64,000 nt of DNA from Isurus oxyrinchus (taxonomy: Eukaryota): NCBI GenBank assembly GCA_026770705.1, contig JANJGN010000016.1, positions 85,808,001-85,872,000 of the forward strand. Reading direction: 5' to 3'. Positions 1 to 41,134 of the stretch are shown here, piece by piece. How positions within the stretch are numbered: position 1 is the stretch's first letter; each line of letters opens with the position of its first letter. The notes below the pieces were generated by a model. That model did no database searches and had not been told where the DNA came from. It saw only the letters and a program-made list of their open reading frames with translations. A program made the position numbers and the translations under genes.

Positions 1-3000
1 AAGAGATCATGTGTAGAAGAGATCATGTGTAAACTTGCTGATGCTAAATACTATTCAGAGATCACATGTAGAAGAGATCACGTGTAAAGTAGCTGATGCT
101 AAATACTATTCAGAGATCAGGTACAGAAGAGATCACATGTAAACATGCTGATGCTAAATACTATTCAGAAATCACGTGTAGAAGAGATCACGTGTAAATT
201 AGCTGATGCTAAATACTATTCTGAGATCACGTGTTGAAGTGATCACGTGTAAAGTAGCTGATGCTAAATACTATTCAGAAATCACGTGTAGAAGAGATCA
301 CGTGTAAATTAGCTGATGCTAAATACTATTCAGAAATCACATGTAGAAGAGATCATGTGTAAACAAGCTGATGCTAACTACTATTCAGAGATCATGTGTA
401 GAAGAGATCACGTGTAAAGTACCTGATGCTAAATACTATTCAGAGATCAGGTATAGAAGAGATCATGTAGAGAAGAGATCATGTGTAAACTTGCTGAAGC
501 TAAATACTATTCAGAGATCATGTGTAGAAGAGATCACGTGTAGAAGAGATCACATGTAAACTAGCTGATGCTAAATACTATTCATAGATCAGGTGTAGAA
601 GTGATCATGTGTAAAGTAGCTGATGCTAAATACTATTCAGAGATCATGTGTAGAAGAGATCACGTGTAAAGTAGCTGATGCTAAATACTATTCAGAGATC
701 ATGTGTAGAAGAGATCACGTGTAAAGTAGCTGATGCTAAATACTATTCAGAGATCATGTGTAGAAGAGATCACGTGTAAAGTAGCTGATGCTAAATACTA
801 TTCAGAGATCACGTGTAGAAGAGATCATGTGTAAAGTAGCTGATGCTAAATACTATTCAGAGATCACGTGTAGAAGAGATCATGTGTAAAGTAGCTGATG
901 CTAAATACTATTCAGAGATCACGTGTAGAAGAGATCATGTGTAAATTAGCTGATGCTAAATACTATTCAGAGATCACGTGTAGAAGTGATCATGTGTAAA
1001 GTAGCTGATGCTAAATACTATTCAGAGATCACGTGTAGAAGAGATCAGGTGTAAAGTAGCTGATGCTAAATACTATTCAGAGATCACGTGTAGAAGAGAT
1101 CACATGTAAACTATCTGATGCTAAATAGTATTCAGAGATCAGGTGCAGAAGAGATCACGTGTACACTATCTGATGCTAAATAGTATTCAGAGATCACGTG
1201 TAGAAGAGATCATGTGTTAAGTAGCTGATGCAAAATACTATTCAGAGATCAGGTGCAGAAGAGATCATGTGTGGAAGAGATTATGTGTAAGATAGCTGAA
1301 GCTAAATACTATTCAGAGATCTTGTGTGGAAGAGATCACGAATAAATTGGCTGAAGCTAAATACTATTCAGATATCAGGTGTAGAAGAGATCGTGTGTAA
1401 AGTAGCTGATGCTAAATACTATTCAGAGATCACATGTAGATGAGATCATGTGTAAAGTAGCTGATGCTAAATACTATTCAGAGATCACATGTACAAGAGA
1501 TCATGTGTAAATTAGCTGAGGCTAAATACTATTCAGAGATCACATGTAGAAGAGATCAGGTGTAAACAAGCTGATGCTAAATACTATTCAGAGAAGATGT
1601 GTAGAAGAGATCATGTGTAAACTAGCTGATGTTAAATTCTATTCAGAGATCACGTGTAGAAGAGATCACGTGTAAACTAGCTGATGCTGAATACTATTCA
1701 GAGATCACATGTAGAAGAGATCACATGTAAACTATCTGTGCTAAATACTATTCAGAGATCACATGTAGAAGAGATCACGTGTAAACTAGCTGATGCTAAA
1801 TACTATTCAGAGATCACGTGTAGAAGAGATCACATGCAAAATAGCTGATGCTAAATACTATTCAGAGATCACGTGTAGAAGAGATCACGTGTAAACTAGC
1901 TGATGCTGAATACTATTCAGAGATCACATGTAGAAGAGATCACATGTAAACTATCTGTGCTAAATACTATTCAGAGATCACGTGTAGAAGAGATCATGTG
2001 TAAAGTAGCTGAGGCTAAATACTATTCAGAGATCGCATGTAGAAGAGATCAGGTGTAAACAAGCTGATGCTAAATACTATTCAGAGAAGATGTGTAGAAG
2101 AGATCACGTGTAAAGTAGCTGATGCTAAATACTATTCAGTGATCACGTGTAGAAGAGATCACATGTAAACTATCTGTGCTAAATACTATTCAGAGATCAT
2201 GTGTAGAAGAGATCATGTGTAAAGTAGCTGATGCTAAATTCTGTTCAGAGATCACGTGTAGAAGAGATCATGTGTAAACTAGCTGATGCTAAATACTGTT
2301 CAGAGATCACGTGTAGAACCGATCACCTGTAAACAAGCTGATGCAAAATACTGTTCAGAGATCATGTGTGGAAGAGATCACGTGTAAACAAGCTGATGCT
2401 AAATTATATTCAGAGATCAAGTGTAGAAAAGATCACATGTAAAGTAGCTGAAGCTAAATACTATTCAGATATCACGTGTAGAATTGTTCATGTGTAAGCT
2501 ACCTGATGTTACATACTATTCCGAGATCACGTGTAGAAAGGATCACGTGTAAAGTCGCTGATGCTAAATTATATTCAGAGATCATGTGTAGAAAAGATCG
2601 CGTGTAAATAAGCTGATGCTAAATAATATTCAGTAATGACATGTAGAAGAGGTCACGTGTAAAGTAGCTGATGCTAAATACTATTCTGAGATCACGTGTG
2701 AAAGAAATCATGTGTAAAGTAGCTGATGCTAAATACTGTTCTGAGATCACGTGTAGAAGAGATCATGTGTAAAGTAGCTGATGCTAAATACTATTCAGTG
2801 ATCACGTATAGAAGAGATCACGTGTAAAGTAGCAGTTGCTAAATTCTATTCAGTGATCATGTGTAGAAGAGATCACGTGTAAAGTAGCTGGTGCTAAATA
2901 CTATTCAGAGATCATGTGTAGAAGAGATCACGTGTAAAGTAGCTGATGCTAAATACTATTCACAGATCACATGTGGAAGAGATCACGTGTAAAGTAGCTG

Positions 3001-6000
3001 ATGCTAAATTCTATTCTGAGATCACGTGTAGAAGAGATCACGTGTAAAGTAGCTGATGCTAAGTAATATTCAGAGATCACGTGTAGAAGAGATCAGGTGT
3101 AAAGTAGCTGATGCTAAATACTATTCAGAGATCACATGTAGAAGAGATCACGTGTAAACTAGCTGATGCTAAATACTATTCAGAGATCACGTGTAGAAGA
3201 GATCACATGCAAAATAGCTGATGCTAAATACTATTCAGAGATCACGTGTAGAAGAGATCACGTGTAAATTAGCTGATGATAAATATTATTCATAGATCAG
3301 GTTTTGAAGAGATCATGTATAGAAGAGATCATGTGTAAAGTAGCAGTTGCTAAATTCTATTCAGTGATCACGTGTAGAAGAGATCACGTGTAAAGTAGCT
3401 GGTGCTAAATACTATGCAGAGATCATGTGTAGAAGAGATCACGTGTAAAGTAGCTGATGCTAAATACTATTCACAGATCACACGTGGAAGAGATCATGTG
3501 TAAAGTAGCTGATGCTAAATTCTATTCTGAGATCACGTGTAGAAGAGATCACGTGTAAAGTAGCTGATGCTAAATAATATTCAGCGATCACATGTAGAAG
3601 AGATCACGTGTAAACTAGCTGATGCTAAATACTATTCAGAGATCACGTGTAGAAGAGATCAGGTGTACGGTAGCTGATGCTAAATACTATTCAGAGATCA
3701 CGTGTAGACGAGATCACATGCAAAATAGCTGATGCTAAATACTATTCAGAGATCATGTGTAGAAGAGATCACGTGTAAAGTAGCTGATGCTAAATACTAG
3801 TCAGAGATCATGTGTAGAAGAGATCACGTGCAAAGTAGCTGATGCTAAATACTATTCATAGATCACATGTAGAAGAGATCATGTGTAAAGTAGCTGATGC
3901 AAAATACTATTCGGAGATCAGGTGCAGAGGAGATCACGTGCAAAGTAGCTGACGCTAAATACTATTCAGAGATCACGTGTAGAAGTGATCATGTGTAAAG
4001 TAGCTGATGCTAAATACTATTCAGAGAAGATGTGTAGAAGAGATCACGTGTAAGGTAGCTGATGCTAAATACTATTCAGAGTTCACGTGTAGAAGAGAGC
4101 ACGTGTAAACTATCTGATGCTAAATAGTATTCAGAGATCACATGTAGAAGAGATCACGTGTAAAGTAGCTGATGCTTAATAATATTTAGAGTTCACGTGT
4201 AGAAGAGATCACGTATAAATTAGCTAATGCTAAATACTATTCAGAGATCAGGTACAGAAGAGATCACATGTAAACAAGCTGATGCTAAATACTATTCAAA
4301 AATCACGTGTAGAAGAGATCACGTGTACACTATCTGATGCTAAATATTATTCAGAAATCACGTGTAGAAGAGATCATGTGTTAAGTAGATGATGCAAAAT
4401 ACTATTCAGAGATTAGGTGCAGAAGAGATCATGTGTGGAAGAGATTATGTGTAAGATAGCTGAAGCTAAATACTATTCAGAGATCTTGTGTGGAAGAGAT
4501 CACGAGTAAATTGGCTGAAGCTAAATACTATTCAGCTATCAGGTGTAGAAGAGATCGTGTGTAAACTATATGATGCTAAATACTATTCTGAGATCACGTG
4601 TGGAAGAGATCACATGTAAGGTAGCTGATGCTAAATACTATTCCGAGATCACATGTAGAAGAGATCACGTATAAATTAGCTGATGCTAAATACTATTCAG
4701 AGATCACATGTAGAAGAGATCACGTATAAAGTAGCTGATGCGAAATACTATTCAGAGATCACATGTAGAAGAGATCACGTATAAATTAGCTAATGCTAAA
4801 TACTATTCAGAGATCAGGTACAGAAGAGATCACATGTAAACAAGCTGATGCTAAATACTATTCAAAGATCACGTGTAGAAGAGATCACATGTAAAGTAGC
4901 TGATGCTAAATACTACTCAAAGATCACGTGTAGAAGAGATCACGTGTAAATTAGCTGATGCTAAATACTATTCAGAGATCAGGTATAGAAGAGATCACGT
5001 GTAAACAAGCTGATGCTAAATACTATTCAGAGATCATGTGTAGAAGAGATCACGTGTAAAGTAGCTGATGCTAAATACTATTCAGTGATCAGGTATAGAA
5101 GAGATCATGTGTAGAAGAGATCACGTGCAAAGTAGCTGAAGCTAAATACTATTCATAGATCACGTGTAGAAGAGATCAGGTGTAAAGTAGCTGATGCAAA
5201 ATACTATTCAGAGAACACGTGTCGAAGAGATCACGTGTAAACTGTCTGATGCTAAATAGTATTCAGAGATCACATGTAGAAGAGCTCACGTGTACACTAT
5301 CTGATGCTAAATAATATTCAGAGATCACGTGTAGAAGTGATCATGTGTTAAGTAGCTGATGCAAAATACTATTCAGAGATCAGGTGCAGAAGAGATCATG
5401 TGTGGAAGAGATTATGTGTAAGATAGCTGAAGCTAAATACTATTCAGAGATCATGTGTAGAAGAGATCACGAGTAAATTGGCTGAAGCTAAATACTATTC
5501 AGATATCAGGTGTAGAAGAGATCATGTGTAAACTATATGATGCTAAATACTATTCGGAGATCACGTGCAGAAGAGATCACGTGTAGAAAGGATCATGTGT
5601 AAAGTAGCTGATGCTAAATACTATTCAGTGATAACGTGTAGAAGAGATCACGTGTAAAGTAGCTGATGCTAAATAATATTCAGCGATCACATGTAGAAGT
5701 GATCACGTGCAAAGTTGCTGATGCTAAATACTATTCAGTGATAACATGTAGAAGAGATCACATGTAAAGTAGCTGATCTTAAAATCTATTCAGTGATAAC
5801 GTGCAGAAGAGATCACGTGTAGACTAACTGATGCAAAATACTATTCAGAGATCATGTATAGAAGAGATCATGTGTAAACTAGCTGAAGCTAAATACTATT
5901 CAGAGATCACGTGTAGAAGAGATCATGTGTAAAGTAGCTGAAGCTAAATACTATTCATAGATCACGTGTAGAAGAGATCATGTGTAAACTTGCTGTTGCT

Positions 6001-9000
6001 AAACACAATTCAGAGATCACGTGTAAAGAGATCACGTGTAAACTATCTGATGCTAAATAGTATTCAGAGATCACATTTAGAAGAGATCACGTGTACACTA
6101 TCTGATGCTAAATAATATTCAGAGATCACGTGTAGAAGAGATCATGTGTTAAGTAGCTGATGCAAAATACTATTCAGAGATCAGGTGCAGAAGAGATCAT
6201 GTGTGGAAGAGATTATGTGTAAGATAGCTGAAGCTAAATACTATTCAGAGATCTTGTGTGGAAGAGATCACGAGTAAATTGGCTGAAGCTAAATACTATT
6301 CAGCTATCAGGTGTAGAAGAGATCATGTGTAAACTATATGATGCTAAATACTATTCTGAGATCACATGTAGAAGAGATCACGTGTAAAGTAGCTGATGCT
6401 AAATACTATTCTGAGATCACGTGTAGAAGAGATCATGTGTAAAGTAGCTGATGCTAAATACTATTCTGAGATCACGTGTAGAAGAGATCAGGTGTAAAGT
6501 AGCTGATGCTAAATACTATTCCGAGATCACATGTAGAAGAGATCACGTGTAACCTAGCTGATGGTAACTAATATTCAGAGATCACATGTAGAAGAGATCA
6601 CGTGTAAACTAGCTGATGCTAAACACTATTCAGCGATCACGTGTAGAAGAGATCACGTGTAAGTTAGCTGAAGCTAAATACTATTCAGAGATCACATGTA
6701 GAAGAGATCATGTGTAAACTAGCTGAAGCTAAATACTATTCAGAGATCATGTGTAGAAGAGATCACGTGCAAAGTAGCTGAAGCTAAATACTATTCATAG
6801 ATCACGTGTAGAAGAGATCAGGTGTAAAGTAGCTGATGCAAAATACTATTCAGAGAACACGTGTCGAAGAGATCTTGTGTAAAGTAGCTGATGCTAATCA
6901 CAATTCAGAGATCACGTGTAAAGAGATCACGTGTAAACTATCTGATGCTAAATAGTATTCAGAGATCACATTTAGAAGAGATCACGTGTACACTATCTGA
7001 TGCTAAATAATATTCAGAGATCACGTGTAGAAGAGATCATGTGTTAAGTAGATGATGCAAAATACTATTCAGAGATCAGGTGCAGAAGAGATCATGTGTG
7101 GAAGAGATTATGTGTAAGATAGCTGAAGCTAAATACTATTCAGAGATCTTGAGTGGAAGAGATCACGAGTAAATTGGCTGAAGCTAAATACTATTCAGCT
7201 ATCAGGTGTAGAAGAGATCGTGTGTAAACTATATGATGCTAAATACTATTCTGAGATCACGTGTAGAAGAGATCACGTGTAAAGTAGCTGATGCTAAATA
7301 CTATTCTGAGATCACGTGTAGAAGAGATCATGTGTAAAGTAGCTGATGCTAAATACTATTCTGAGATCACGTGTAGAAGAGATCATGTGTAAAGTAGCTG
7401 ATGCTAAATACTATTCAGAGATCACATGTAGAAGACATCACGTGTAACCTAGCTGATGGTAAATAATATTCAGGGATCATGTGTAGAAGAGATCACGTGT
7501 AAACTAGCTGATGGTAAATACTATTCAGAGATCACATGTAGAAGAGATCATGTGTAAAGTAGCTGATGCAAAATACTATTCGGAGATCAGGTGCAGAGGA
7601 GATCACGTGCAAAGTAGCTGACGCTAAATACTATTCAGAGATCACGTGTAGAAGTGATCATGTGTAAAGTAGCTGATGCTAAATACTATTCAGAGAAGAT
7701 GTGTAGAAGAGATCACGTGTAAGGTAGCTGATGCTAAATACTATTCAGAGTTCACGTGTAGAAGAGAGCACGTGTAAACTATCTGATGCTAAATAGTATT
7801 CAGAGATCACATGTAGAAGAGATCACGTGTAAAGTAGCTGATGCTTAATAATATTTAGAGTTCACGTGTAGAAGAGATCATGTGTAAACTTGCTGATGCT
7901 AAACACTATTCAGAGATCACATTTAGAAGAGATCACGTGTACACTATCTGATGCTAAATATTATTCAGAAATCACGTGTAGAAGAGATCATGTGTTAAGT
8001 AGATGATGCAAAATACTATTCAGAGATCAGGTGCAGAAGAGATCATGTGTGGAAGAGATTATGTGTAAGATAGCTGAAGCTAAATACTATTCAGAGATCT
8101 TGTGTGGAAGAGATCACGAGTAAATTGGCTGAAGCTAAATACTATTCAGCTATCAGGTGTAGAAGAGATCGTGTGTAAACTATATGATGCTAAATACTAT
8201 TCTGAGATCACGTGTGGAAGAGATCACATGTAAGGTAGCTGATGCTAAATACTATTCCGAGATCACATGTAGAAGAGATCACGTATAAATTAGCTGATGC
8301 TAAATACTATTCAGAGATCACATGTAGAAGAGATCACGTATAAAGTAGCTGATGCGAAATACTATTCAGAGATCACATGTAGAAGAGATCACGTATAAAT
8401 TAGCTAATGCTAAATACTATTCAGAGATCAGGTACAGAAGAGATCACATGTAAACAAGCTGATGCTAAATACTATTCAAAGATCACGTGTAGAAGAGATC
8501 ACATGTAAAGTAGCTGATGCTAAATACTACTCAAAGATCACGTGTAGAAGAGATCACGTGTAAAGTAGCTGATGCTAAATACTATTCAGAGATCACGTGT
8601 AGAAGAGATCACGTGTAAATTAGCTGATGCTAAATACTATTCAGAGATCAGGTATAGAAGAGATCACGTGTAAACAAGCTGATGCTAAATACTATTCAGA
8701 GATCATGTGTAGAAGAGATCACGTGTAAAGTAGCTGATGCTAAATACTATTCAGTGATCAGGTATAGAAGAGATCATGTGTAGAAGAGATCACGTGCAAA
8801 GTAGCTGAAGCTAAATACTATTCATAGATCACGTGTAGAAGAGATCAGGTGTAAAGTAGCTGATGCAAAATACTATTCAGAGAACACGTGTCGAAGAGAT
8901 CACGTGTAAACTGTCTGATGCTAAATAGTATTCAGAGATCACATGTAGAAGAGCTCACGTGTACACTATCTGATGCTAAATAATATTCAGAGATCACGTG

Positions 9001-11110
9001 TAGAAGTGATCATGTGTTAAGTAGCTGATGCAAAATACTATTCAGAGATCAGGTGCAGAAGAGATCATGTGTGGAAGAGATTATGTGTAAGATAGCTGAA
9101 GCTAAATACTATTCAGAGATCATGTGTAGAAGAGATCACGAGTAAATTGGCTGAAGCTAAATACTATTCAGATATCAGGTGTAGAAGAGATCATGTGTAA
9201 ACTATATGATGCTAAATACTATTCGGAGATCACGTGCAGAAGAGATCACGTGTAGAAAGGATCATGTGTAAAGTAGCTGATGCTAAATACTATTCAGTGA
9301 TAACGTGTAGAAGAGATCACGTGTAAAGTAGCTGATGCTAAATACTATTCAGTGATAACGTGTAGAAGAGATCACGTGTAAAGTAGCTGATGCTAAATAC
9401 TATTCAGTGATAACGTGTAGAAGAGATCACGTGTAAAGTAGCTGATGCTAAATACTATTCAGAGAACACGTGTAGAAGAGATCACATGTAAAGTAGCTGA
9501 TGCTAAATACTATTCAGAGATCACGTGCAGAAGAGATCACGTGTAAAGTAGCTGATGCTAAATACTATTCAGTGATAACGTGTAGAAGAGATCACGTGTA
9601 AAGTAGCTGATGCTAAATAATATTCAGCGATCACATGTAGAAGTGATCACGTGCAAAGTTGCTGATGCTAAATACTATTCAGTGATAACGTGCAGAAGAG
9701 ATCACATGTAGACTAACTGATGCAAAATACTATTCAGAGATCATGTGTAGAAGAGATCATGTGTAAAGTAACTGATGCTAAATACTATTCAGAGATCACG
9801 TGTAGAAGAGATCATGTGTAAAGTAGCTGATGCTAAATACTATTCAGAGATCACGTGTAGAAGAGATCATGTGTAAAGTAGCTGATGCTAAATACTATTC
9901 AGAGATCACGTGTAGAAGAGATCACGTGAAAACTAGCTGATGCTAAATACTATTCAGAAATCATGTATAGAAGAGATCACGTGCAAAGTAGCTGAAGCTA
10001 AATACTATTCATAGATCACGTGTAGAAGAGATCAGGTGTAAAGTCGCAGATGCTAAATACTATTCAGAGAACACGTGTCGAAGAGATCATGTTAACTAGC
10101 TGATGCTAAATGTTATTCAGAGATCAGGTGCAGAAGAGATCACGTGTAAACTAGCTGATGCAAAATACTGTTCAGAGATCACGTGTAGAACAGATCACGT
10201 GCAAACTAGCTGTTGCAAAATACTGTTCAGAGATCATGTGTGGAAGAGATCACATGTAAACTAGCTGAAGCGAAATAGTATTCGGAGATCACATGTAGAA
10301 GAGATCACTAGTAAACTAGCTGGTGCTAAATACTATTCAGCGATCAGGTGTAGAAGAGATCACGTGTAAACTATCTGATGCTAAATACTATTCAGAGATC
10401 ACATGTAGAAGACATCGCGTGTAAACTAGCTGAAGCTAAATATTATTCAGATATCATGTGTAGAATTGTTCACGTCTAAACTAGCTGATGCTACATACTA
10501 TTCCGAGATCACGTGTAGAAAGGATCATGTGTAATTTAGCTGATGCTAAATTATATTCAGAGATCATGTGTAGAAGAGATCACGTGTAAATAAGCTGATG
10601 CTAAATAATATTCAGAAATGACATGTAGAAGAGGTCATGTGTAAAGTAGCTGATGCTAAATACTATTCAGAGATCACATGTAGAAGGGATCACGTGTAAA
10701 GTAGCTGATGCTAAATTCTATTCAGAGATCACGTGTAGAAGAGATCATGTGTAAAGTAGCTGATGCTAAATACTATTCAGAGATCACGTGTAGAAGGGAT
10801 CACGTGTAAAGTAGCTGATGCTAAATACTATTCAGAGATCACATGTAGAAGAGATCACGTGTAAACAAGATGATGCTAAATACTATGCAGAGATCATGTG
10901 TAGAAGAGATCACGTGTAAAGTAGCTGATGCTAAACACTATTCAGAGATCACGTGTAGAAGAGATCATGTGTAAAGTAGCTGATGCTAAATTCTATTCAG
11001 AGATCACGTTTAGAAGGGATCACGTGTAAAGTAGCTGATGCTAAATTCTATTCAGAGATCACATGTAGAAGAGATCACGTGTATAGTTGCTGATGCTGAA
11101 TACTATTCAG
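1..11110 (+). repeat. 55-bp satellite array (~200 copies; runs off the window's left edge), consensus GTAGAAGAGATCACGTGTAAAGTAGCTGATGCTAAATACTATTCAGAGATCACGT
   Basis: Period 55 read directly (e.g. CACGTGTAAA at 661 and 716). Internal GAGATCACGTGTA sub-repeat and higher-order blocks. Confidence 0.98.
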
Positions 11111-12082
11111 TCTCAGATGTGAGTTTGTGCTTCTGGCAGGTCAAGCTGGATGAACGCTGCTCCTGTCTCTGTACCTTGAACACACCATACGGGTCAAACA
11201 GGTTTCTATGCTGACCTTTTGGTATTAATTCAGCTCCGGAGGTTTTCCACAGAGCAGTGAAGGGGCTGTTTGAAGGGTTAGAGGGCAGTGAAACCTATAT
11301 TGACGATGTGCTGGTCTGGGGAGACTCACGAGAAGAGTACGACCACAGACTGACGCAGGTACTGGCCAGAGCTGGAGAAAGGAGCCTCAAGTTGAAGAAG
11401 GAAAAGTACAAAATAGGTCGTCATGAAATCAAGTCCTTGGGACATGTGCCAACAAGTGAGGGACTGAAACCGGACCCGAGTAAAATCGAAGCAGTTGTGA
11501 ACATGCCACTCCCAGGATGTAAGAAAGACTTGGAGAGGTATTAGGGAATGGTGAGCTATCCTGGGAAATTCATTTCAAACATATCAGACCTGACAGCACC
11601 TCTCAGAGAACTTCCACAAAATGATGTGGAATTGCACTGGGAACAAAGTCACCAGGAAGCTTTGACCTGTCTGGACAGAACACTGACCCATGCACCAGGG
11701 TTAAAGTGTTACGATGTCAGTCACCCGGTCAAGATCTCAGTGGACGCTTCAAAGACTGGCCTGGGAAATGTCCTCTTGCAAAATGAGGCTCCAGTGGCAT
11801 CGGCTTCAAAGGCAACAAGTGAAACACAGCAGCGGGGTGTCCAAATAGAGAAAGAAATGTTAGCAATTGTGTTTGACCTAGAATGTTTCCATCAGTCTGG
11901 CAAAGACATGGAGGCAGAGTCTGATCATAAGCCTTTGGAAGCTCCACTTAAAAACCCTTAAACTGTGCACCACCAAGAATCCAAAGATTATTAATGTGTC
12001 TGCAGAAGTACCAGGCCAGAGTTAAATAGAAACCAGACATGGAAATGTACATCGCAGACTCTCTGTCACGTGCATACCCAGA
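11065..12082 (+). mobile_element. Decayed Ty3/Gypsy pol fragment (reverse transcriptase + RNase H)
   Basis: One frame reads VEEITCIVADAEYYSVSDVSLCFWQVKLDE...NTPYG...PFGINSAPEVF...YIDDVLVWG...LGHV...KPDPSKIEAV...VDASKTGLGNVLLQ...QIEKEMLAIVF...SDHKPLE, then MYIADSLSRA after a frameshift. In-frame stops present. Confidence 0.95.
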
Positions 12083-12620: not shown

Positions 12621-12689
12621 AGCCAGAGGGAGGTTTATATCATGGACATTGAGGACAAACTCTGACCTCAGGAAAGGGGCAGTTTCGGA

Positions 12690-14948
12690 GGGAGGGCGGA
12701 GCTGGCAGTATTGGAGAGAGCAGGGAGCTGGCAGTATTAGGGGAAGCAGGGAGGTGGCAGTATTGGAGAGAGCAGGGAGGTTGGCAGTGTTGGAGGGATC
12801 AAGGAGCTGGCAGTATTGGAGGGAGCAGGCAGTATTGGAGAGAGCAAGCAGCTGGCAGTATTGGAAGGAGGAGAGAGCGGGCAGTAATGGAGGGAGCAGG
12901 GAACTGGCATTATTGGAGGTAGCAGGGAGCTGGCAGTGTTGGAGGGAGCAGGGAACTGGCATTATTGGAGGTAGCAGGGAGATGGCAGTGTTGGAGGGAG
13001 CTGGGGGGTGGCGATACTGGAGGGAGCAGGGAGGTGGTAGTTTGGAGGGAGCAGGTAGCTGGCAGTATTGGCGGAAGCTGGGAGCTGGCAGTATTCGAGA
13101 GAGCAGGGAGATGGCAGTATTGGAGGGTACTGAATGCTGACAGTATTGGAAAGAGCGGGGAGCATGCATTATTGGAGGCCACAGGGAGCTGGTAGTGTTT
13201 GAGGGAACAGGGAGCTGGCATTATTGGAGAGAGCAGGGACCTGGCAGTATTGGAAAGAGCAGGGAGATGGCAGTATTGGAAGGAGCGGGGTGCTGGTATT
13301 CTTGGAGAGAGTAGCGATCTGGCAGTATTGGAGTGCGAAGGGAGCTAGAATTGTCAGAGAGAGTAGCGATGTGGCAGTATTAGAGGGAGCGGGCAGTTGG
13401 CAGTATTGAAGGTGCAGGGAGCTGGCATTATTGGAGAGTGCTGGGAGCTGACTGCATTGGAGGGAACAGATAGACAGGTGTATTGATGGGTGCATGGATC
13501 TGGCAGTGTATGAGGGAGCAGGGAGCTGGCAATATTAGAGAGAGCAGGGAGCTGGCATTATTGGTGAGAGCAGGGAGCTGGCAGTATTAGAGAGAGCATG
13601 GAGCTGGCAGTATTGGTGACAGCAGGGAGATGGTAGTATTGGAGAGAACTGTGTCCTGGCATTATTGGAGATAGCAGGGGGCTGACAGCATTGGAGGGAG
13701 CAGGAACTTGCTTTATTGTTGTATCTAAGGAACTGGCAGTATTGGAGGGACTATATAGTTGGCGGAATTGGAGGTAGCAGCGAGCTGGCAGTATTGGAGG
13801 TAGCAGGGAGCTGGCAGTATTGGAGGGAGCAGTGAGCTAGCAATATTGGAGGGAGCAGGGAGCTGGCAGTATTGGAGGGAGCAGGGAGCTGGCAGTATTG
13901 GAGGGAGGAGGGAGCTGGCATTATTGGAGGGAACAGGGAGCTGGCAGGATTATATTGAGATAGGAGCTGGCAGTATTGGAGAGAGCTGGGAGGTGGCCCT
14001 TTTGGAGGTAGTGGGGAACTGGCATTATTGGAGGGTCAGGGAGCTGGCAGTATTGGAGAGAGTAGGAAGCTGGCATTATTGGAGGGAGCAGTGAGCTAGC
14101 AATATTGGAGGGAGCAGGGAGCTGGCATTATTGGAGGGAACAGGGAGCTGGCAGGATTATATTGAGATAGGAGCTGGCAGTATTGGAGAGAGCTGGGAGG
14201 TGGCCCTATTGGAGGTAGTGGGGAACTGGCATTATTGGAGGGGCACGGAACTGGCATTATTGGAGGGTCAGGGAGCTGTCAGTATTGGAGAGAGTAGGAA
14301 GCTGGTATTATTGGAGGGGCACGGAACTGGCATTATTGGAGGGTCAGGGAGCTGGCAGTATTGGAGGGAGTAGGAAACTGGCATTATTGGAGGAGCACGG
14401 AACTGGCATTATTGGAGGGGCAGCGAGCTGGCAGTATTGGAGTAAGCAGGGAAGTGTCAGTATTGGAATGGCTAGAGAGTCGGCAGTATTAGAGGGAGCA
14501 GTAAGGAGGCAGTTGTGGAGGGAGCAGGGAGCTGACGGTATTGGGGAGAGCAGGGAGCTGTCATTATTGGAGACTGCATTGGGTTGGTAGTGCTGGAGGG
14601 AACAGGGAGTTGGCATTATTGGAGGGTAAAGGGAGCTGGTAGTTTTGGAAAAGGGAGTTGGCATTATTGGAGGGTGAAAGGAGCTGGTAGTTTTGGAGGG
14701 AACAGGGAGTTGGCATTATTGGAGGGTGCAGGGAGCTGGTAGTTTTGGAGGGAACAGGGAGTTGGCATTATTGGAGGGTGCAGGGAGCTGGTAGTTTTGG
14801 AGGGAACAGGGAGTTGGCATTATTGGAGGGTGCAGGGAGCTGGTAGTTTTGGAGGGAACAGGGAGTTGGCATTATTGGAGGGTGCAGGGAGCTGGTAGAG
14901 TTGGATAGAGTAGCGATGTGGCAGTGTTGGAGGGAGCAGGGAGCAGTA
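12690..14948 (+). repeat. 26-bp G-rich minisatellite GGCAGTATTGGAGGGAGCAGGGAGCT, with a 52-bp dimer at ~14590-14890
   Basis: Direct reading. It explains the many WQYWRE / LQYCQL ORFs. Confidence 0.95.
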
Positions 14949-15231: not shown

Positions 15232-16318
15232 TTTGGTGATGATAAATTTGGTGACTGTTGGACTGCAGCTATAAGAATAATCCCATGCTATAAGATCACC
15301 TGATCTCTCTAAACCAGTGTGCTAGCAGCATGGGAACCTGTACAGAGAGAGTACTTCTGTCGTCGTGCTGTTGGATGCTCACAGGTATTTGCTGCTGCTC
15401 TGTCCCGTAAGCAAAGTCAAATGTTTCCACGAAGGAAAGTTGCCTGAAGATCAACTCTATAACAAACTGGCGATGAGGATAAATCAGAATTGGTTCTGTA
15501 CCTCACCCAGCGATTGTGAATCTCTATGTTTGTTTGAAATAACAGCAGGTATATGCATTCAAAATGCCAGTTTTTCAGAATCGATCCCTTTGAGCCAGCC
15601 ACTGATGATTGGTCACAATATTTATAATGTCTTGAGTTCTTCTTTCAAGCAAACAAAATCACAGAGGAAGAGAAGAGGAGAGCGATCCTCCTGAGTACTT
15701 GTCGGAGAAAAAACCTGCAATTTACCACTGTAATAGGAGAAATAAAACAATAGGACATTGTTCCACTGATAGTCATTACCGAACCACTGGTTCCTGTTGA
15801 ATTTGTTCAACCTAGGGCAGACATGGCCAATGTCTCTGTCGGAGTGGGAGACACTGAACTGCATGTGTCTAATGAGGTACCTGATATTAATGCGGTTCCA
15901 GAGGACGTGGTTCCTGCAAAAGAATTTGAAGGCGTGGAGCTGTGATGTTCCACACGGATCAGGAAACCACCTGAAAGGCTGAACTTGTAATTTCATGACC
16001 TGTGTAAATATTGTAATGTCATGAGATAAATGTCCTTGTAAATACAAAATGTACAGAAAAGTTAATGGGGGAGGAATGTCGTGGTTATAGTTTTGGGAAA
16101 TGTTGGACTGTAGCTTTAAGAATAACCGTGTACTGTAAGATCACATGAAGTGTGTAAACCAATGTGTGAGCAGTGCAGGCAACCTCCACACAGAGAGAGA
16201 GAGAGAGTACTTCTGTAGTAATGGAGCTTGATGCAGATGTGTAGTTGCTGCTGTCCTCTTGTAAATAAAGTCAAATGTTTCCACCAAGAAAAGTTGCCTG
16301 ATGATCAACTCTATAACA
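15232..16318 (+). mobile_element. Internally deleted Ty3/Gypsy element: LTR-PBS-gag start//pol end-PPT-LTR
   Basis: LTR ~15232-15464 and LTR 16077-16318 align and both end TCAACTCTATAACA. PBS TGGCGATGAGGAT 15468-15480; PPT GGGGGAGGAA 16067-16076. Gag-like IDPFEPATDDWSQYL*CLEFFFQANKITEEEKRRAILLS; pol tail STRIRKPPERLNL*. Flanks CATGC/CATAC. Confidence 0.9.
15468..15480 (+). other. Primer-binding site, probably for tRNA-Ser(GCU)
   Basis: TGGCGATGAGGAT begins 3 nt after the LTR end. It matches the complement of the tRNA-Ser(GCU) 3' end (TGGCGACGAGGAT) except for one CpG>TpG change. Confidence 0.7.
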
Positions 16319-19744: not shown

Positions 19745-21506
19745 GTGGTGTACCTGAGTACACAGACTGGATTGTGAAGTGTGATGTACCTGAGTACACA
19801 GACTGGATTGTGAAATGTGATGTACCTGAGTACACAGACTGGATTGTGAACTGTGGTGTACCTGAGTACACAGACTGGACTGTGAAGTGTGATGTACCTG
19901 AGTACACAGACTGGAGTGTGAAGTGTGATGTACCTGAGTACACAGACTGGATTGTGAAGTGTGGTGTACCTGACTACACTGACTGGATTGTGAAGTGTGG
20001 TGTACCTGAGTACACAGACTGGATTGTGAAGTGTGATGTACCTGAGTACACAGACTGGATTGTGAAGTGTGGTGTACATGAGTACACAGACTGGATTGTG
20101 AAGTGTGATGTACCTGAGTACACAGACTGGATTGTGAAGTGTGATGTACCTGAGTACACAGACTGGATTGTGAAGTGTGGTGTACCTGAGTACACAGACT
20201 GAATTGTGAAATGTGATGTACCTGAGTATACAGACTGGATTGTGAAGTGTGATGTAACTGAGTAGACAGAATTGATTGTGAACTGTGATGTACCTGAGTA
20301 CACAGACTGGATTTTGAAATGTGATGTACCTGAGTACACAGACTGGATTGTGAAATGTGATGTACCTGAGTACACAGACTGGATTGTGAATTGTGATGTA
20401 GCTGAATACACAGACTGGATTGTGAAGTGTGATGTACCTGAGTACACACACTGGATTGTGAAGTGTGGTGTACCTGAGTACACAGACTGGATTGTGAAGT
20501 GTGATGTACCTGAGTACACAGACTGGATTGTGAAGTGTGATGTACCTGAGTACACAGACTGGATTGTGAAGTGTGATGTACCTGAATACACAGACTGGAT
20601 TGTGAAGCGTGATGTACCTGAGTACACACACTGGATTGTGAAGTGTGATGTACCTGAGTACACAGACTGGATTGCAAAGTGTGATGTACCTGAGTACACA
20701 GACTGAATTGTGAAGTGTGATGTATCTGAATACACCGACTGGACTGTGAACTGTGACGTATTTGAGTACACAGACTGGATTGTGAAGTGTGATGTACCTG
20801 AGTGAGCAAACTGCATTGTGAAGTGTGACGTGCCTGAGTACGCAGTCTGGATTGTGAAGTGTGATGTAGCTGAGTACACAGACTGGATTGTGAAGTGTGA
20901 TCAACCTGAGTAAATAGACTGGAGTGTGAAGTATGATGTACCTGTGTACACAGACTGGATTGTGAAATATGTTGCACATGGGTACACAGACTGGATTGTG
21001 AAGTGTGATGTACCTGAGTACACAGACTGGATTGTGAAATATGATGTACCTGAGTACACAGACTGGATTGTGAAGTGTGATGTACTGAATAGACAGACTG
21101 GATTGTGAAGTGTGATGTACCTGTGTACACAGACTGGAATGTGATGTGTGATGTACCTGAGTACACAGATTGGATTGTGAAGTGTGATGTACCTGAGTAC
21201 ACAGACAGGATTGTGAATTGTGACGTACCTGTGTACACAGACTGGATTGTGAAGTGTGATGTACCTGAGTACACAGACTGGATTGTGAAGTGTGATTTAC
21301 CTGAGTACACAGACTGGATTGTGAAGTGTGATGTACCTGAGTACACAGACTGGATTGTGAAGTGTGATGTACCTGAGTACACAGACTGGATTGTGAAGTG
21401 TGATTTACCTGAGTACACAGACTGGATTGTGAAGTGTGATGTACCTGAGTACACAGACTGGATTGTGAAGTGTGATGTACCTGAGTACATAGACTGGATT
21501 GTGAAG
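19745..21506 (+). repeat. 36-bp minisatellite GTGTGATGTACCTGAGTACACAGACTGGATTGTGAA (~49 copies)
   Basis: Direct reading; 12-aa periodic ORFs in several frames. Confidence 0.98.
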
Positions 21507-22169
21507 TAAATCTTCACCAATAAGTAACCTATAAAAATATAAAAATGACATTTTGCTGAACATCATATTCCACAACTTTTATTGTTGCATTTTTTAGATC
21601 TTTATACATTGGCACAATTATCTGATCTGCATATATTACTGTATATAGACAATATATATTTGTAATATATTATTGTAATAAATAATGTAACATGAAATGA
21701 TATATATTATTTATTACTCAGGCTTCTCTATATATTACTCAGCAGGATATATCATCACTAACATTTTAACTATGTAGTGACTCAGCTCTGATAACCATAT
21801 TAATAAAGTTTTAGTTGTATCTTTCATTCTCTCTGTGTTTACTGACACAATTCTCTGGTTTGTGGGTTACCCTATGTACAAACCATCTGTGATGTCCTTG
21901 GAGTAATGGCTCAAACTGACTTCATCAAACTGACATTCCAAATAGGCCGACATTGTTCATAATGGGATTAACTGTAATTGTGTCAGATCTGAGCATCAGC
22001 AGCTAAACTAGAGAGAGGGATGGAGGATAGATAGAGAGAAGGATGGAGGTTAATTAGAGGGAGGGGAGGACGTCAAATAGAGAAGGGATTGAGGTCAGAG
22101 AGAGAGAGGGATAGAGGTCAGATAGAGATAGGGATGGAGGTCAGTTAGAGAGACGGATGGAGATCAGAG

Positions 22170-22828
22170 ATCTGTGTATCTGAGAGGAAGCTCAGACACT
22201 CATAAGGAGGGTTTGAGATCAGGGAGGTGTGTATCTGAGAGGAAGGTTGGACACTCAGAGGGAGGAATGGAGATCAGGGAGGTGTGTATCTGAGAGGAAG
22301 TTCGGACACTCAGAGGGAGGGATGGAGATCAGGGAGGTGTGTATCTGAGAGGAAGGTCGGACACTCAGAGGGAGGGATGGAGATCAGGGAGGTGTGTAAC
22401 TGAGAGGAAGGTCGGACACTCAGAGGGAGGGATGGAGATCAGGGAGGTGTGTAACTGAGAGGAAGATCGGACACTCAGAGGGAGGGATGGAGATCAGGGA
22501 GGTGTGTATCTGAGAGGAAGGTCGGACACTCAGAGGGAGGGATGGAGATCAGGGAGGTGTGTAACTGAGAGGAAGGTCGGACACTCAGAGGGAGGGATGG
22601 AGATCAGGGAGGTGTGTATCTGAGAGGAAGGTCGGACACTCAGAGGGAGGGATGGAGATCAGGGAGGTGTGTAACTGAGAGGAAGGTCGGACACTCACAT
22701 GGAGGGATGGAGATCAGGGAGGTGTGTATCTGAGAGGAAGGTCGGACACTCAGAGGGAAGGATGGAGATCAGGGAGGTGTGTATCTGAGGGGAAGCTCGG
22801 ACACTCAGAGGGAGGGATGGAGATCAGG
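22170..22828 (+). repeat. 55-bp minisatellite GGAGATCAGGGAGGTGTGTATCTGAGAGGAAGGTCGGACACTCAGAGGGAGGGAT (~12 copies)
   Basis: GGAGATC at 22324 and 22379. Unrelated in sequence to the 1-11110 satellite. Confidence 0.95.
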
Positions 22829-29360: not shown

Positions 29361-29377
29361 GGAGGTCCAGCAGTCCG

Positions 29378-29640
29378 GAGGCCCATGTTTACTGGTCCCT
29401 ATTGGAGGATACTTTGGGAAGGAGGCCCATGTTTACTGGTCCCTATTGGAGGGTCCAGTGGGAAGGAGGCCCATGTTTACTGGTCTCTATTGGAGGGCCC
29501 AATGGGAAGGAGGCCCATGTTTACTGGTCTCTATTGGAGGCTCCAGTGGGAAGGAGGCCCATGTTTACTGGTCTCTATTGGAGGGTCCAGTGGGAAGGAG
29601 GCCCATGTTTACTGGTCCCTACTGGAGGGTCCAGTGGGAC
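29378..29640 (+). repeat. 44-bp minisatellite GGAGGCCCATGTTTACTGGTCTCTATTGGAGGGTCCAGTGGGAA (~6 copies)
   Basis: Direct reading. Confidence 0.9.
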
Positions 29641-30229: not shown

Positions 30230-32700
30230 AGTCAGTTAGAGAATTCCAGAACGATGGAGGGTGGGAGAGAGAGATGGGGAGGCAGAGAGAGATGGAAAAG
30301 GTGGTGAGGGNNNNNNNNNNNNNNNNNNNNNNNNNNNNNNNNNNNNNNNNNNNNNNNNNNNNNNNNNNNNNNNNNNNNNNNNNNNNNNNNNNNNNNNNNN
30401 NNNNNNNNNNNNNNNNNNNNNNNNNNNNNNNNNNNNNNNNNNNNNNNNNNNNNNNNNNNNNNNNNNNNNNNNNNNNAGAGAGAGAAAACGATACAAGACC
30501 GTGAAAAAGCAGAGAGGGAGAACAACAGAAATACAGAGATAGAGTTGGGGTTTTGGGAGANNNNNNNNNNNNNNNNNNNNNNNNNNNNNNNNNNNNNNNN
30601 NNNNNNNNNNNNNNNNNNNNNNNNNNNNNNNNNNNNNNNNNNNNNNNNNNNNNNNNNNNNNNNNNNNNNNNNNNNNNNNNNNNNNNNNNNNNAGATCAAA
30701 CAAGGAGAGGGAAACAAGAAGAACAAGACAAGGAGACAGGCAGAGAGAGAGGGGGAGAGAGAGACAGAGAGTGACGGACAGAGACAGACAGAGGTAGGGA
30801 GTGAGAGACAGAGAGTGACGGACAGAGACAGACAGAGGTAGGGAGAGAGAGACAGAGAGTGACGGACAGAGACAGACAGAGGTAGGGAGAGAGAGACAGA
30901 GAGTGACGGACAGAGACAGACAGAGGTAGGGAGAGAGAGACAGAGAGTGACGGACAGAGACAGACAGAGGTAGGGAGAGAGAGACAGAGAGTGACGGACA
31001 GAGACAGACAGAGGTAGGGAGAGAGAGACAGAGAGTGACGGACAGAGACAGACAGAGGTAGGGAGAGAGAGACAGAGAGTGACGGACAGAGACAGACAGA
31101 GGTAGGGAGAGAGAGACAGAGAGTGACGGACAGAGACAGACAGAGGTAGGGAGAGAGAGACAGAGAGTGACGGACAGAGACAGACAGAGGTAGGGAGAGA
31201 GAGACAGAGAGTGACGGACAGAGACAGACAGAGGTAGGGAGAGAGAGACAGAGAGTGACGGACAGAGACAGACAGAGGTAGGGAGAGAGAGACAGAGAGT
31301 GACGGGCAGAGACAGACAGAGGTAGGGAGAGAGACAGAGAGTGACGGACAGAGACAGACAGAGGTAGGGAGTGAGAGACAGAGAGTGACGGGCAGAGACA
31401 GACAGAGGTAGGGAGAGAGAGACAGAGAGTGACGGACAGAGACAGACAGAGGTAGGGAGAGAGAGACAGAGAGTGACGGACAGAGACAGACAGAGGTAGG
31501 GAGAGAGAGACAGAGAGTGACGGACAGAGACAGACAGAGGTAGGGAGTGAGAGACAGAGAGTGACGGACAGAGACAGACAGAGGTAGGGAGAGAGAGACA
31601 GAGAGTGACGGGCAGAGACAGACAGAGGTAGGGAGTGAGAGACAGAGAGTGACGGACAGAGACAGACAGAGGTAGGGAGTGAGAGACAGAGTGACGGACA
31701 GAGACAGACAGAGGTAGGGAGCGAGAGACAGAGAGTGACGGACAGAGACAGACAGAGGTACGGAGTGAGAGACATAGAGTGACGGACAGAGACAGACAGA
31801 GGTAGGGAATGAGAGACAGACAGTGATGAACAGAGACTAAGAGAAGCAGGGAGAGACAGAGAGTGGTGGACAGAGAATGAGAGAGATAGAGACAGAGACT
31901 GACTGGCAAAGACAGAGAAAGAGAGAGTCAGAGAGGGAGAGACCAGAGAGTGATGGACAGAGAGAGACAGAGATGGCAGAGAGTGATGGACAGAGACAGG
32001 AAGACACAGAGAGAGACATAGAGTGCTGGACAAAGGCAGGGAGATGCAGGGAGAGACAGAGAGTGACGGATAAAGACAGAGGGAGACAGGGAGAGAGAGA
32101 GTGATGGACAGAGACTGGGAGACACAGAGATAGAGANNNNNNNNNNNNNNNNNNNNNNNNNNNNNNNNNNNNNNNNNNNNNNNNNNNNNNNNNNNNNNNN
32201 NNNNNNNNNNNNNNNNNNNNNNNNNNNNNNNNNNNNNNNNNNNNNNNNNNNNNNNNNNNNNNNNNNNNNNNNNNNNNNNNNNNNNNNNNNNNNNNNNNNN
32301 NNNNNNNNNNNNNNNNNNNNNNNNNNNNNNNNNNNNNNNNNNNNNNNNNNNNNNNNNNNNNNNNNNNNNNNNNNNNNNNNNNNNNNNNNNNNNNNNNNNN
32401 NNNNNNNNNNNNNNNNNNNNNNNNNNNNNNNNNNNNNNNNNNNNNNNNNNNNNNNNNNNNNNNNNNNNNNNNNNNNNNNNCAGAGACAGAGAGAGGTAGA
32501 GAGACAGAGAGAGTGACGGACAGAGACAGAGAGAGGTAGAGAGAGAGACAGAAAGTGACGGACAGGTAATGAGAGAGGGAGAGAGAGAAAAGTAAAGAGA
32601 GAAAGAGAAAGATGGACAAAGACAGAGAGAGAGAGAGAGGGGGGGAGACTGTGAAACAGAGACAAATAGAGAGAGAAAGATGGAGAGGAAGTGAGAGGTG
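30230..32700 (+). repeat. Purine-rich (GA) tract including a 44-bp array (~30770-31830) and N runs at 30311-30476, 30561-30692 and 32137-32480
   Basis: Unit GACGGACAGAGACAGACAGAGGTAGGGAGAGAGAGACAGAGAGT; period 44 (30861, 30905). Confidence 0.95.
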
Positions 32701-33076: not shown

Positions 33077-33371
33077 GTATCAGTGGGGACATCACCATGA
33101 AACAGCCTCCCCTGGTGTCAGTGAGCCTGGGCCAGACCGCCACCATCACCTGTACGGCCAGTCAGTCTGTTAGCAGCTATGTTGCTTGGTACCAGCAGCG
33201 AGAAGGACAGAAACCGACTCTCCTGATCTATGATGCAACAACTCGATTCACAGGAACATCCGAGCGATTCACCGGCAGTGGATCTGGCACTCAATTCACC
33301 CTGACAATCAGCAATGTACAGAATGAGGATGTCGCTGATTATTACTGTCAGCAGTGGCAAAGCTCCCCCTA
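33077..33371 (+). CDS. IGKV: Ig kappa-type (cartilaginous fish type III/NS4-like) V segment, unrearranged
   Basis: Acceptor CCCCTCAG at 33076. [26 protein letters not shown]...WYQQ...LLIY...[16 protein letters not shown]...[14 protein letters not shown]; both Cys and the Trp intact. Confidence 0.98.
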
Positions 33372-33399
33372 CACAGTGATACAGAGCCTGACAAAAACC
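33372..33399 (+). other. 12-bp-spacer recombination signal sequence (V)
   Basis: CACAGTG-atacagagcctg-ACAAAAACC, perfect consensus. V-12/J-23 is the kappa-type arrangement. Confidence 0.99.
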
Positions 33400-33404
33400 T
33401 CAAT

Positions 33405-34147
33405 ACACACAGCACCACCTCCTGTACTGACACATCCCACAGTTATATATAATATATAATAATGGATACACAGTCCCACCTCCTGTACTGATACATCCCA
33501 CAGTTATATAGAATATATAATAAAGGACACACAGTCCCACCTCCTGTACTGACACATCCCACAGTTATATAGAATATATAATAATGGACACACAGTCCCA
33601 CCTCCTGTACTGACACATCCCACAGTTATATAGAATATATAATAATGGACACACAGTCCCACCTCCTATACTGACACATCCCACAGTTATATAGAATATA
33701 TAATAATGGACACACAGCACCATCTCCTGTACTGACACATCCCACAGTTATATAGAATATATAATAATGGACACACAGTCCCACCTCCTATACTGACACA
33801 TCCCACAGTTATATAGAATATATAATAATGGATACACAGTCCCACCTCCTATACTGACACATCCCACAGTTATATAGAATATATAATAATGGACACACAG
33901 TCCCACCTCCTGTACTGACACATCCCAAAGTTATATAGAATATATAATAATGGACACAAAGTCCCACCTCATGTACTGAAACATCCCAGTTATATAGAAT
34001 ATATAATAATGGACACACAGCACCATCTCCTGTACTGACACATCCCACAGTTATATAGAATATATAATAATGGACACACAGTCCCACCTCCTGTACTGAC
34101 ACATCCCACAGTTATATATAATATATAATAAAGGACACACAGCACCT
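33405..34147 (+). repeat. 61-bp minisatellite (~12 copies) in the V-J interval
   Basis: CACACAGTCCCACCTCCTGTACTGACACATCCCACAGTTATATAGAATATATAATAATGGA. Confidence 0.97.
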
Positions 34148-34156
34148 TTAACACAG

Positions 34157-34912
34157 TTAAAGGTGAGTGTGAGTGAGAGACAGAGAGAGGGTGAGAGTGA
34201 GTTAAAGGTGAGTGTGAGTGAGAGACAGAGAGAGGGTGAGAGTGAGTTAAAGGTGAGTGTGAGTGAGAGACAGAGAGAGGGTGAGAGTGAGTTGAAGGTG
34301 AGTGTGAGTGAGAGACAGAGAGAGGGTGAGAGTGAGTTAAAGGTGAGTGTGAGTGAGAGACAGAGAGAGGGTGAGAGTGAGTTAAAGGTGAGTGTGAGTG
34401 AGAGACAGAGAGAGGGTGAGAGTGAGTTAAAGGTGAGTGTGAGTGAGAGACAGAGGGTGAGAGTGAGTTAAAGGTGAGTGTGAGTGAGAGACAGAGAGAG
34501 GGTGAGAGTGAGTTAAAGGTGAGTGTGAGTGAGAGACAGAGAAAGGGTGAGAGTGAGTTAAAGGTGAGTGTGAGTGAGAGACAGAGAGTGAGAGTGAGTT
34601 AAAGGTGAGTGTGAGTGAGAGACAGAGAGAGGGTGAGAGTGAGTTAAAGGTGAGTGTGAGTGAGAGACAGAGAGAGGGTGAGAGTGAGTTAAAGGTGAGT
34701 GTGAGTGAGAGACAGAGAGAGGGTGAGAGTGAGTTAAAGGTGAGTGTGAGTGAGAGACAGAGAGAGGGTGAGAGTGAGTTAAAGGTGAGTGTGAGTGAGA
34801 GACAGAGAGAGGGTGAGAGTGAGTTAAAGGTGAGTGTGAGTGAGAGACAGAGAGAGGGTGAGAGTGAGTTAAAGGTGAGTGTGAGTGAGAGACAGAGAGA
34901 GGGTGAGAGTGA
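34157..34912 (+). repeat. 45-bp minisatellite (~17 copies) in the V-J interval
   Basis: GTTAAAGGTGAGTGTGAGTGAGAGACAGAGAGAGGGTGAGAGTGA. Confidence 0.97.
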
Positions 34913-34933: not shown

Positions 34934-34972
34934 GGTTTTTGTACAGCCCCTGCACTGGAAGCTCTCAGTGTG
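34934..34972 (-). other. 23-bp-spacer recombination signal sequence (J)
   Basis: GGTTTTTGT (34934-34942), 23-bp spacer, CAGTGTG (34966-34972 = CACACTG; one mismatch, essential CAC kept). Confidence 0.97.
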
Positions 34973-35007
34973 GGTTACGTTCGGTAAAGGAACCAAACTC
35001 AGACTGA
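34973..35007 (+). CDS. IGKJ: Ig kappa-type J segment VTFGKGTKLRL
   Basis: FGxG motif and phase-1 donor A/GTAAGT at 35008. Confidence 0.98.
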
Positions 35008-35718
35008 GTAAGTAAACCCCAATCCTCTCTTATTAACCTTTTCAATACTGAAACTTTCTCAAACACTAATGCTGAATAGTTGAAGGTGTTAGTGAGGAAT
35101 TGCAGTGAATGAAATGGTTCAGCGAACAACACTGTGTATAACAGGGTGCCCAGCTGTATTTCTTTCATTACATTCCCTCCTTTAAGCAGCAAGATAGAAA
35201 TAACCAACTTTTACCCACCGTCTAGAGGAGATCTGGACGTTTGCAGACTGTGCTGACATTGCTGCACCATGGACTGAAATCACTCACTAGACTCCTGTCA
35301 GTCTCAGTGTGACAGACACGGGCAGAGTTTGATATGAGCTCCGGCTCCCTCTCACAGTCTCTGATATAACTGATCACAGCACCAGCACAGTGAGACACCA
35401 AGGTCCCACCTCCCCCAGCTTGATCTCTGCTCTCTCCACTCTCTGGTTATCTCTTGGCAAATTTCTGATGACAAACAGGTAGAGCAGGGCCCACAATCCA
35501 GTGGCTTCAGTGTTCCAGGGTATTGGGGAGACTCTCCGTTTCCCCCGAATGTTTAAATGTCACCCTCTAGACTCCAGACCTCCCGGAATCTGCTCTCCAT
35601 CTCTCTCCTGAAGACACTGCCTCTGACTGGGGAACAGCTCCACCCTCCCCAAGTGGGCTCATTCCTCCAAGTGTGAGGCAGGAGGGTGAACGTGACAGGC
35701 TATTGGACCGTGAGGTGT

Positions 35719-40770: not shown

Positions 40771-40805
40771 TGACACTGATTAAACTTCCTTCTCTTCCCT
40801 TTCAG

Positions 40806-41134
40806 GCAGAGAGAAGTCACCACCCACAGTGACCCTGCTGCCCCCCTCCCCAGAGGAGGTCAAGACCAAGGGCACTGCCACCCTGGTGTGCCTTGCCAAT
40901 CACTTCTATCCCGATGAGGTGAAGGTGGAGTGGAAGAAGGACGGTGCAGCCATTTCGGATGGGGTTCAGACCAGCAACTACCTGCGAGCTTCAGACAGCA
41001 CCTACAGCGTCAGCAGCCTGCTGACCCTCTCTGGCTCTGGCTGGGAGTCCAACGCCAGCTTCTCCTGTGTCGTCACCCACGAGAGCCTCTCCTCTCCCCT
41101 CAGCAAGAGCATCAGGAGATCAGAATGTGCGTAG
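40806..41134 (+). CDS. IGKC: Ig kappa-type light-chain constant exon
   Basis: Polypyrimidine acceptor ...CCCTTTCAG at 40805, in phase with J. (S)REKSPPTVTLLPPSPEEV...ATLVCLANHFYPD...EWKKDG...YSVSSLLTLS...FSCVVTHESLSSPLSKSIRRSECA*; penultimate inter-chain Cys. Confidence 0.98.

Follow-up and report, generated by a model that had tools for sequence, protein, structure and literature searches.

A satellite in an immunoglobulin light-chain region of Isurus oxyrinchus that very probably arose within the reverse transcriptase gene of one Ty3/Gypsy insertion

In the excerpts of the literature on which this comparison draws, satellites derived from transposable elements (TEs), coding parts included, are well documented (PMC9659126, PMC12628747, PMC6947457, PMC7004042, PMC3648361, PMC3389668), and gag or pol domains can seed them (PMC12628747); the usual sources in LTR elements are LTRs, UTRs and pre-existing internal arrays. 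Birth of a satellite from unique sequence is usually deduced from monomer similarity with the parent gone, and in a human survey a mechanism was assignable to only 6% of TE-derived repeats (PMC3389668). Described systems close to the one reported here include the Ogre-derived satellites of Lathyrus and pea (PMC7004042; PisTR-A via PMC9659126), maize CRM1TR and CRM4TR (PMC3648361), human TE-derived minisatellites (PMC3389668, PMC6947457), and rye E3900, chicken HinfI and PROsat (PMC9659126).

The present satellite has a 55-bp unit and occupies one end of a 64,000-nucleotide stretch of Isurus oxyrinchus DNA (hereafter the window). Like the Ogre satellites, it appears to grow from an array inside a Ty3/Gypsy element, at a fixed position and orientation relative to the pol domains. 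Ogre arrays, however, are already present in the 3' UTR of many copies that transpose, whereas here the parent family lacks a repeat at the site, the source appears to be reverse transcriptase (RT) coding sequence, the origin single and the spread by segmental duplication. CRM1TR and CRM4TR are likewise wholly Gypsy-derived, with neighbouring loci about a megabase apart, but they come from LTR and UTR sequence with successive deletions proposed (PMC3648361), whereas here 55 bp of pol, nested duplications and the retention of both parent flanks are indicated. As in the short-direct-repeat (Haber-Louis) model for human minisatellites, a TE segment would be duplicated in situ at short direct repeats and then expanded locally; the human cases described usually comprise 2-3 units (on average 2.3-2.4 for Alu-derived ones), with flanking repeats of 5-20 bp (PMC3389668, PMC6947457), unlike the 2-3 nt microhomologies, composite unit and up to ~1,900 units found here. 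Rye E3900 (gag), chicken HinfI (CR1 ORF2) and PROsat (L1 ORF2) also show that coding parts of retroelements seed satellites, but their origins, as given in PMC9659126, rest on monomer similarity, whereas here both junctions are kept. The excerpts examined contained no satellite derived from the RT of an LTR element with both junctions kept, and searches of the open-access literature on TE-derived satellites or on elasmobranch satellites with immunoglobulin (Ig) genes turned up no report of the present array. What is new is not TE derivation, which is already known, but a birth record of an RT-derived satellite in twelve replicates, in which the parent family, both junctions and two seeding steps are legible at base resolution. 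One founder in twelve loci of very different array length forms a natural replicate series in which one can measure how fast arrays expand and in blocks of what size, how mutation within arrays compares with that outside them, and how far loci exchange sequence; the presence of the insertion in a second species makes dating possible.

Our analysis indicates that the satellite very probably arose inside the RT gene of a single Ty3/Gypsy element, likely through two short duplications, one nested in the other, was copied together with Ig light-chain clusters, and then changed in length copy by copy. The parent sequence is written here as X-a-b-c-Y, with a, b and c of 7, 9 and 30 nt. The window array (Table 1) measures 13,551 bp (241 units) in full, at C16:85805560-85819110. 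The window contains 197 whole units, of which 177 measure 55 bp, 14 measure 71 bp and six have small deletions. The array has no regular higher-order repeat, and its duplicated kilobase-sized blocks are irregular; one of 755 bp is identical to a block from 8590, at an offset of 3,669. The most frequent translation of the 46-nt parts, VEEITCKVADAKYYS, occurs in 23 of the 191 translated in the window, and 30 of the 191 contain a stop. We rejected the array as coding sequence; it lacks a long frame, the maximum stop-free run on the + strand being 70 aa.

Table 1. Features of the window (positions in the 64,000-nucleotide stretch)
Feature	Positions	Strand	Remarks
Satellite array, b-a-b-c units (55 bp; 71-bp variants)	1..11110	+	extends 2,440 bases left of window
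Last unit of the array	11056..11110	+	b 11056-11064, a 11065-11071, b 11072-11080, c 11081-11110
Duplicated 755-bp block	4921..5675	+	illustrates recent duplication of several monomers
Decayed Ty3/Gypsy RT C-terminal part and RNase H	11111..12080	+	DNA identity to dispersed family copies
Ig light-chain V exon	33077..33399	+	12-bp-spacer RSS 33372-33399; leader ATG near 32842
23-bp-spacer RSS and J segment (FGKGT)	34934..35010	+	context
Open frame with single C1-set constant exon	40784..41134	+	context

The right junction ties the array to its parent. The a-b-c part of the last unit (46 nt, 11065-11110) is parent RT sequence, and its frame carries on through VSDVSLCFWQVKLDE to reach YIDD (11296-11307), a run that an earlier note on this DNA had described as unbroken. 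The codon at 11116-11118 is taken by us to be the first catalytic Asp of RT. That note had also called the satellite as such in frame with its parent, which is true of the last unit, itself parent sequence, but not of the array as a whole, because 55 is not a multiple of 3, nor of the stub throughout, whose frame has stops at 11212, 11542 and 11959 and changes near the RNase H end. Positions 11060-12078, last unit included, match all ten dispersed copies tested at 83.5-86.2% over ~1 kb, so the resemblance of stub and array to the family is not due to chance; the stub is assigned to the family by this DNA identity, the Pfam domains having been scanned in the ORFs of dispersed copies. The window stub ends ~220 bp earlier than most paralogues, a copy-specific deletion.

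A family search with window positions 11111-11700 yielded 576 candidates, and the 40 scored comprised 11 near-identical copies on C16 (94-100%) along with dispersed copies at 86-88%. In all 19 dispersed copies fetched, upstream pol without an array precedes the junction site, so that a short array of the Ogre type is missing from all of them, and dispersed members have the 46-nt sequence once, at the same RT position (without indel in 13 of the 19). The last 46 nt of the array are thus ordinary RT of a dispersed family, in agreement with the derivation from Gypsy RT put forward earlier, which the alignment to family members could have contradicted and did not. The parent is a dispersed Ty3/Gypsy LTR retrotransposon family with the Gypsy domain order: RVT_1, RT_RNaseH(_2) and Integrase_H2C2 follow one another in copy L036, rve lies downstream of RNase H in L045, and 8 of 14 family ORFs have a Pfam match. 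Three ORFs upstream of RT gave no Pfam match to gag or protease, and LTR and RT are separated by ~1.4 kb of conserved sequence. Direct LTRs of ~240 bp, 88.2% identical and with partly decayed TG...CA ends, stand at both ends of L039 and L045; a 5-bp target-site duplication, read by eye, is present in these two of three two-LTR copies inspected, the third (L042) matching at 3 of 5 positions. These duplications were read in dispersed copies, the 3' end of the window copy being lost. The family motifs and a Leu primer site resemble those of the Mag clade of Ty3/Gypsy, to which the family may belong. The 13-nt primer-binding site behind the 5' LTR in L039, L036 and L043 is identical to the beginning of an antisense probe for tRNA-Leu(CAA) (PMC7997516).

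The strongest evidence for an origin inside pol comes from paralogue E (C16:86.640-86.645 Mb), the least altered copy, which has the structure X-a-(b-a-b-c)n-Y. To the left of its 2.16-kb array stand a 5' LTR and element positions 250-1775, and to the right positions 1730-2969 (reference: dispersed copy L039). The two sides overlap on L039 by exactly the 46-nt a-b-c, so no pol was lost, and since upstream pol and RT flank the array in colinear order, left and right, we infer that the array arose inside pol. The X-a-b-a joint at E's left end is its only match in 4.98 Gb at ≤1 mismatch, which argues that no transposing lineage carried the seed, given a search sensitivity of ~55% per copy. The earlier note had proposed an origin in situ and had suggested looking for upstream pol at the left end of the array. 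Paralogue E bears out both points, but the window copy was not the birthplace, having inherited its array by cluster duplication, and upstream pol is absent from its own left end. There the first ~120 bp of the element's own LTR, in the same orientation, are fused to the array with a 2-nt overlap (GA) at the joint. This left end is a deletion into the LTR that removed the LTR 3' part through upstream RT; as eight copies, the window copy included, have the joint in common, it is later than the array and earlier than most of the duplications.

The 26-nt motif used for mapping spans a satellite-specific joint and has 572 + 494 matches in the 4.98-Gb genome (control, 0). All but two of the 1,066 (572 and 492) fall in 12 arrays at C16 85.8-88.2 Mb, each adjoining the same RT stub on its right side, so the joint is not that of a satellite dispersed elsewhere, an outcome that would have told against the earlier reading; the remaining two matches are absent from 200 kb in three further candidate intervals. 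The arrays total 287 kb and 5,141 units within a 2.4-Mb Ig light-chain region. Their lengths are 13.6, 2.1, 36.6, 106, 2.2, 19.1, 0.7, 0.6, 3.2, 43.0, 43.5 and 17.0 kb, a 170-fold range (0.6-106 kb), those of the largest depending on the assembly (array D has a 15-kb block at 0.08%). Seven of the 12 exceed 10 kb in head-to-tail order, with up to ~1,900 units. In every array babc is the dominant unit, with the variants bababc (71), babababc (87) and bc (39). Several copies are rearranged: D has lost the first ~90 nt of the RT stub and with them the right junction; F has an inversion 116 nt into RT followed by five reverse-orientation satellite units (C16:86811553-86811933); and in D, G and H the left flank is not element sequence, that of D and H matching inverted cluster DNA from nearby. 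At least one pair of clusters is without an array. A site at C16:88.396 Mb was considered as an empty pre-insertion site and rejected: the element is absent, but flank is missing on both sides, which suggests a deletion, and no target site could be read from it.

We propose the following course of events. A Gypsy element would have inserted between two head-to-head V-J-C clusters. The 16 bp of a-b may then have been duplicated at the 3-nt microhomology GTA, which starts both a and c, and the resulting 55 bp of b-a-b-c in turn at the 2-nt microhomology AG, which ends both a and c; the 9-nt re-use that the earlier note had seen in the monomer would thus go back to a 16-bp duplication lying within one of 55 bp. 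That the 16-bp step came before the 55-bp step is inferred from the one surviving left junction, in E. At 2-3 nt the microhomologies are short enough to be coincidental, and slippage and repair-type duplication both fit; slippage at these same two microhomologies predicts gains and losses of a-b, which accounts for the 71-, 87- and 39-bp units. Early array growth and prolonged accumulation of mutations would have followed, then the deletion joining LTR position ~120 to the array in the ancestor of eight copies, segmental duplication to 12 copies, and recent growth through duplication of kilobase multi-monomer blocks, probably by unequal exchange.

The divergence data suggest an old monomer pool and young array lengths. 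Paralogous RT stubs differ by a mean of 1.7% (0.9-2.5%; 45 pairs among 10 copies, the truncated D and F excluded) and dispersed copies by 11.8% (171 pairs), and monomers of the window array differ by 12.7% overall and by 12.4% in adjacent pairs. With CpG columns removed, the 46 nt differ by 12.2% among monomers versus 12.5% among 13 dispersed copies. Since monomers are about as divergent as the family while stubs are so similar, the monomer pool dates from about the time of the insertion and long predates the cluster copies, provided that mutation is not faster in arrays; the monomer clock is possibly fast inside arrays, and 'early' growth is to be read as approximate. Self-duplicated blocks of 0.4-15 kb at ~0-1% difference account for 28-78% of the seven large arrays and are absent from the five small ones, and the present lengths are therefore recent. 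E's left flank is 3.4-4.0% from seven other copies (copy C, with a rearranged and misaligned flank, is omitted) and its RT stub 0.9-2.0%, in alignments of 1-1.4 kb; these unequal distances suggest exchange between paralogues. Arrays were compared with one another by exact-block matching, since colinearity at monomer level is noisy from irregular units. Between arrays B (85.93 Mb, +) and I (87.57 Mb, -), a shared array block of 1,259 bp and a distal right flank each differ by 0.3% but the RT stubs by 1.5%, a pattern that we read as patchy exchange between distant copies on opposite strands.

Whether the seed itself was made on the chromosome has to be weighed against the element's own RT, which might have made the first duplication or duplications by a template slip during transposition, so that the seed arrived duplicated and only the expansion was chromosomal. 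A human survey suggests that retrotransposition may start TE-derived repeats (PMC3389668), and the seed is indeed about as old as the insertion, a monomer divergence of 12-13% being close both to that of the family and to that between the LTRs of two dispersed copies (88.2% identical). The unique X-a-b-a joint speaks against a transposing lineage with the 16-bp duplication, within the sensitivity given above, although a one-off slip is still compatible with it; RT stubs lie 7.4-8.5% from the column yardstick of the dispersed copies and monomers 7.4-8.5% from their own (10 arrays >2 kb), which fits either timing. On balance we regard a slip during transposition as unlikely. A satellite born elsewhere and then inserted into, or captured by, a Gypsy copy might be suspected from the non-element left flanks of three arrays and the two unplaced motif matches. 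The monomer, however, is made entirely of 46 nt native to the site that it occupies, the RT stub is kept in all 12 arrays, in D and H the odd left flanks correspond to inverted DNA of the neighbouring cluster region, and the colinear pol flanks of E refute outside capture unless E is misassembled; we give this explanation almost no credence.

A separate question is whether selection kept or enlarged the arrays for an action on the Ig clusters, as dense E-box fields (one CANNTG per b block) or as recombination substrates for cluster turnover. CANNTG is kept in 82-84% of b blocks, giving 28-35 per kb versus 2-6 per kb in the flanks; two divergent V genes stand ~14 and 22 kb away from the window array; rearrangement breakpoints occur at an end of, or ≤120 bp from, four of the 12 arrays; E's flank distances point to paralogue exchange; and CAGGTG motifs can target hypermutation (PMC2822603). 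Yet the outer E-box columns are not better conserved than others (5.6% vs 6.7%, permutation P 0.26, 1,746 distinct monomers), so that selection on E-boxes was rejected for want of a signal, and CAGGTG makes up only 1.5-2.3% of the sites. CpG columns have 14-32% variants versus ~6% elsewhere, a heavy decay that points to germline methylation, and CANNTG survives because this decay strikes its two free middle bases. Array length is also far from uniform, a cluster pair does without an array, and the region is full of unrelated arrays. Selection for such an action is accordingly improbable, and we hold with equal reserve the broader idea that RT codons were turned into E-box-dense arrays shaping the light-chain locus, as recombination substrates for V-J-C cluster birth and loss and through length tuning of two flanking divergent V promoters. 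E-box conservation and coding frame gave no sign of function, and the arrays most likely represent neutral DNA; the many unrelated arrays present argue that tandem expansion is favoured in this region generally.

The insertion and its array are not confined to one data set. The satellite is also present in a separate study of organism A, and about one fifth of the sampled words were found in sequencing runs of organism B from several studies; both main monomer variants are seen in the two organisms. In two of three runs of organism B examined, a contig runs across this insertion site (~95-96% identity) as far as the deletion point; the 5' LTR appears intact there, visibly so in run X5, in which the contig continues into it. 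One contig of organism B bridges the satellite-specific c-b joint (31 and 37 letters), and one crosses the X-a-b-a joint (33 and 53 letters); among the contigs listed, none spans the LTR-array deletion. Because organism B has the same insertion and array joints, insertion and array predate the species split. The listed carriers of satellite words include no RNA run; a single satellite contig at depth 2.9, from a run guessed to be RNA, was not accepted as evidence of expression.

The locus is a multi-cluster Ig light-chain locus. A mirror V-J-C cluster lies left of the window, and C16 85.78-88.48 Mb contains 25 C exons (among 150 scored) with near-identical scores, in clusters that are mostly head-to-head inverted pairs; the satellite arrays make up about a tenth of the region. 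The 12/23 RSS pattern is listed for kappa (PMC5985310, Table 1). From RSS type, cluster layout and the likeness of the leader, these are putatively shark kappa clusters.

Other repeats crowd the same interval. Between Gypsy stub and V exon lie arrays at 12678-14944 (26 bp), 19745-21507 (36), 22147-22828 (55), 29377-29639 (44) and 30753-31983 (44), and 61-bp and 45-bp arrays fill the V-J interval (33405-34912) from 6 bases after the V nonamer to 22 before the J nonamer. Downstream of the C exon is a 15.5-kb array of 28-bp units (43908-59457); a similar array, inverted, lies downstream of the mirror cluster on C16, ~27-50 kb left of the window. The window also contains, at 15560-15995, a short remnant in which a gag-start-like frame is joined to RKPPERL, which we take to be an integrase-end motif; two ORFs scanned there gave no Pfam match, and the remnant probably derives from an LTR element of a different family that has lost internal sequence. 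An RVT_1 fragment in the J-C intron (39036-39599, -) is likely a LINE piece.
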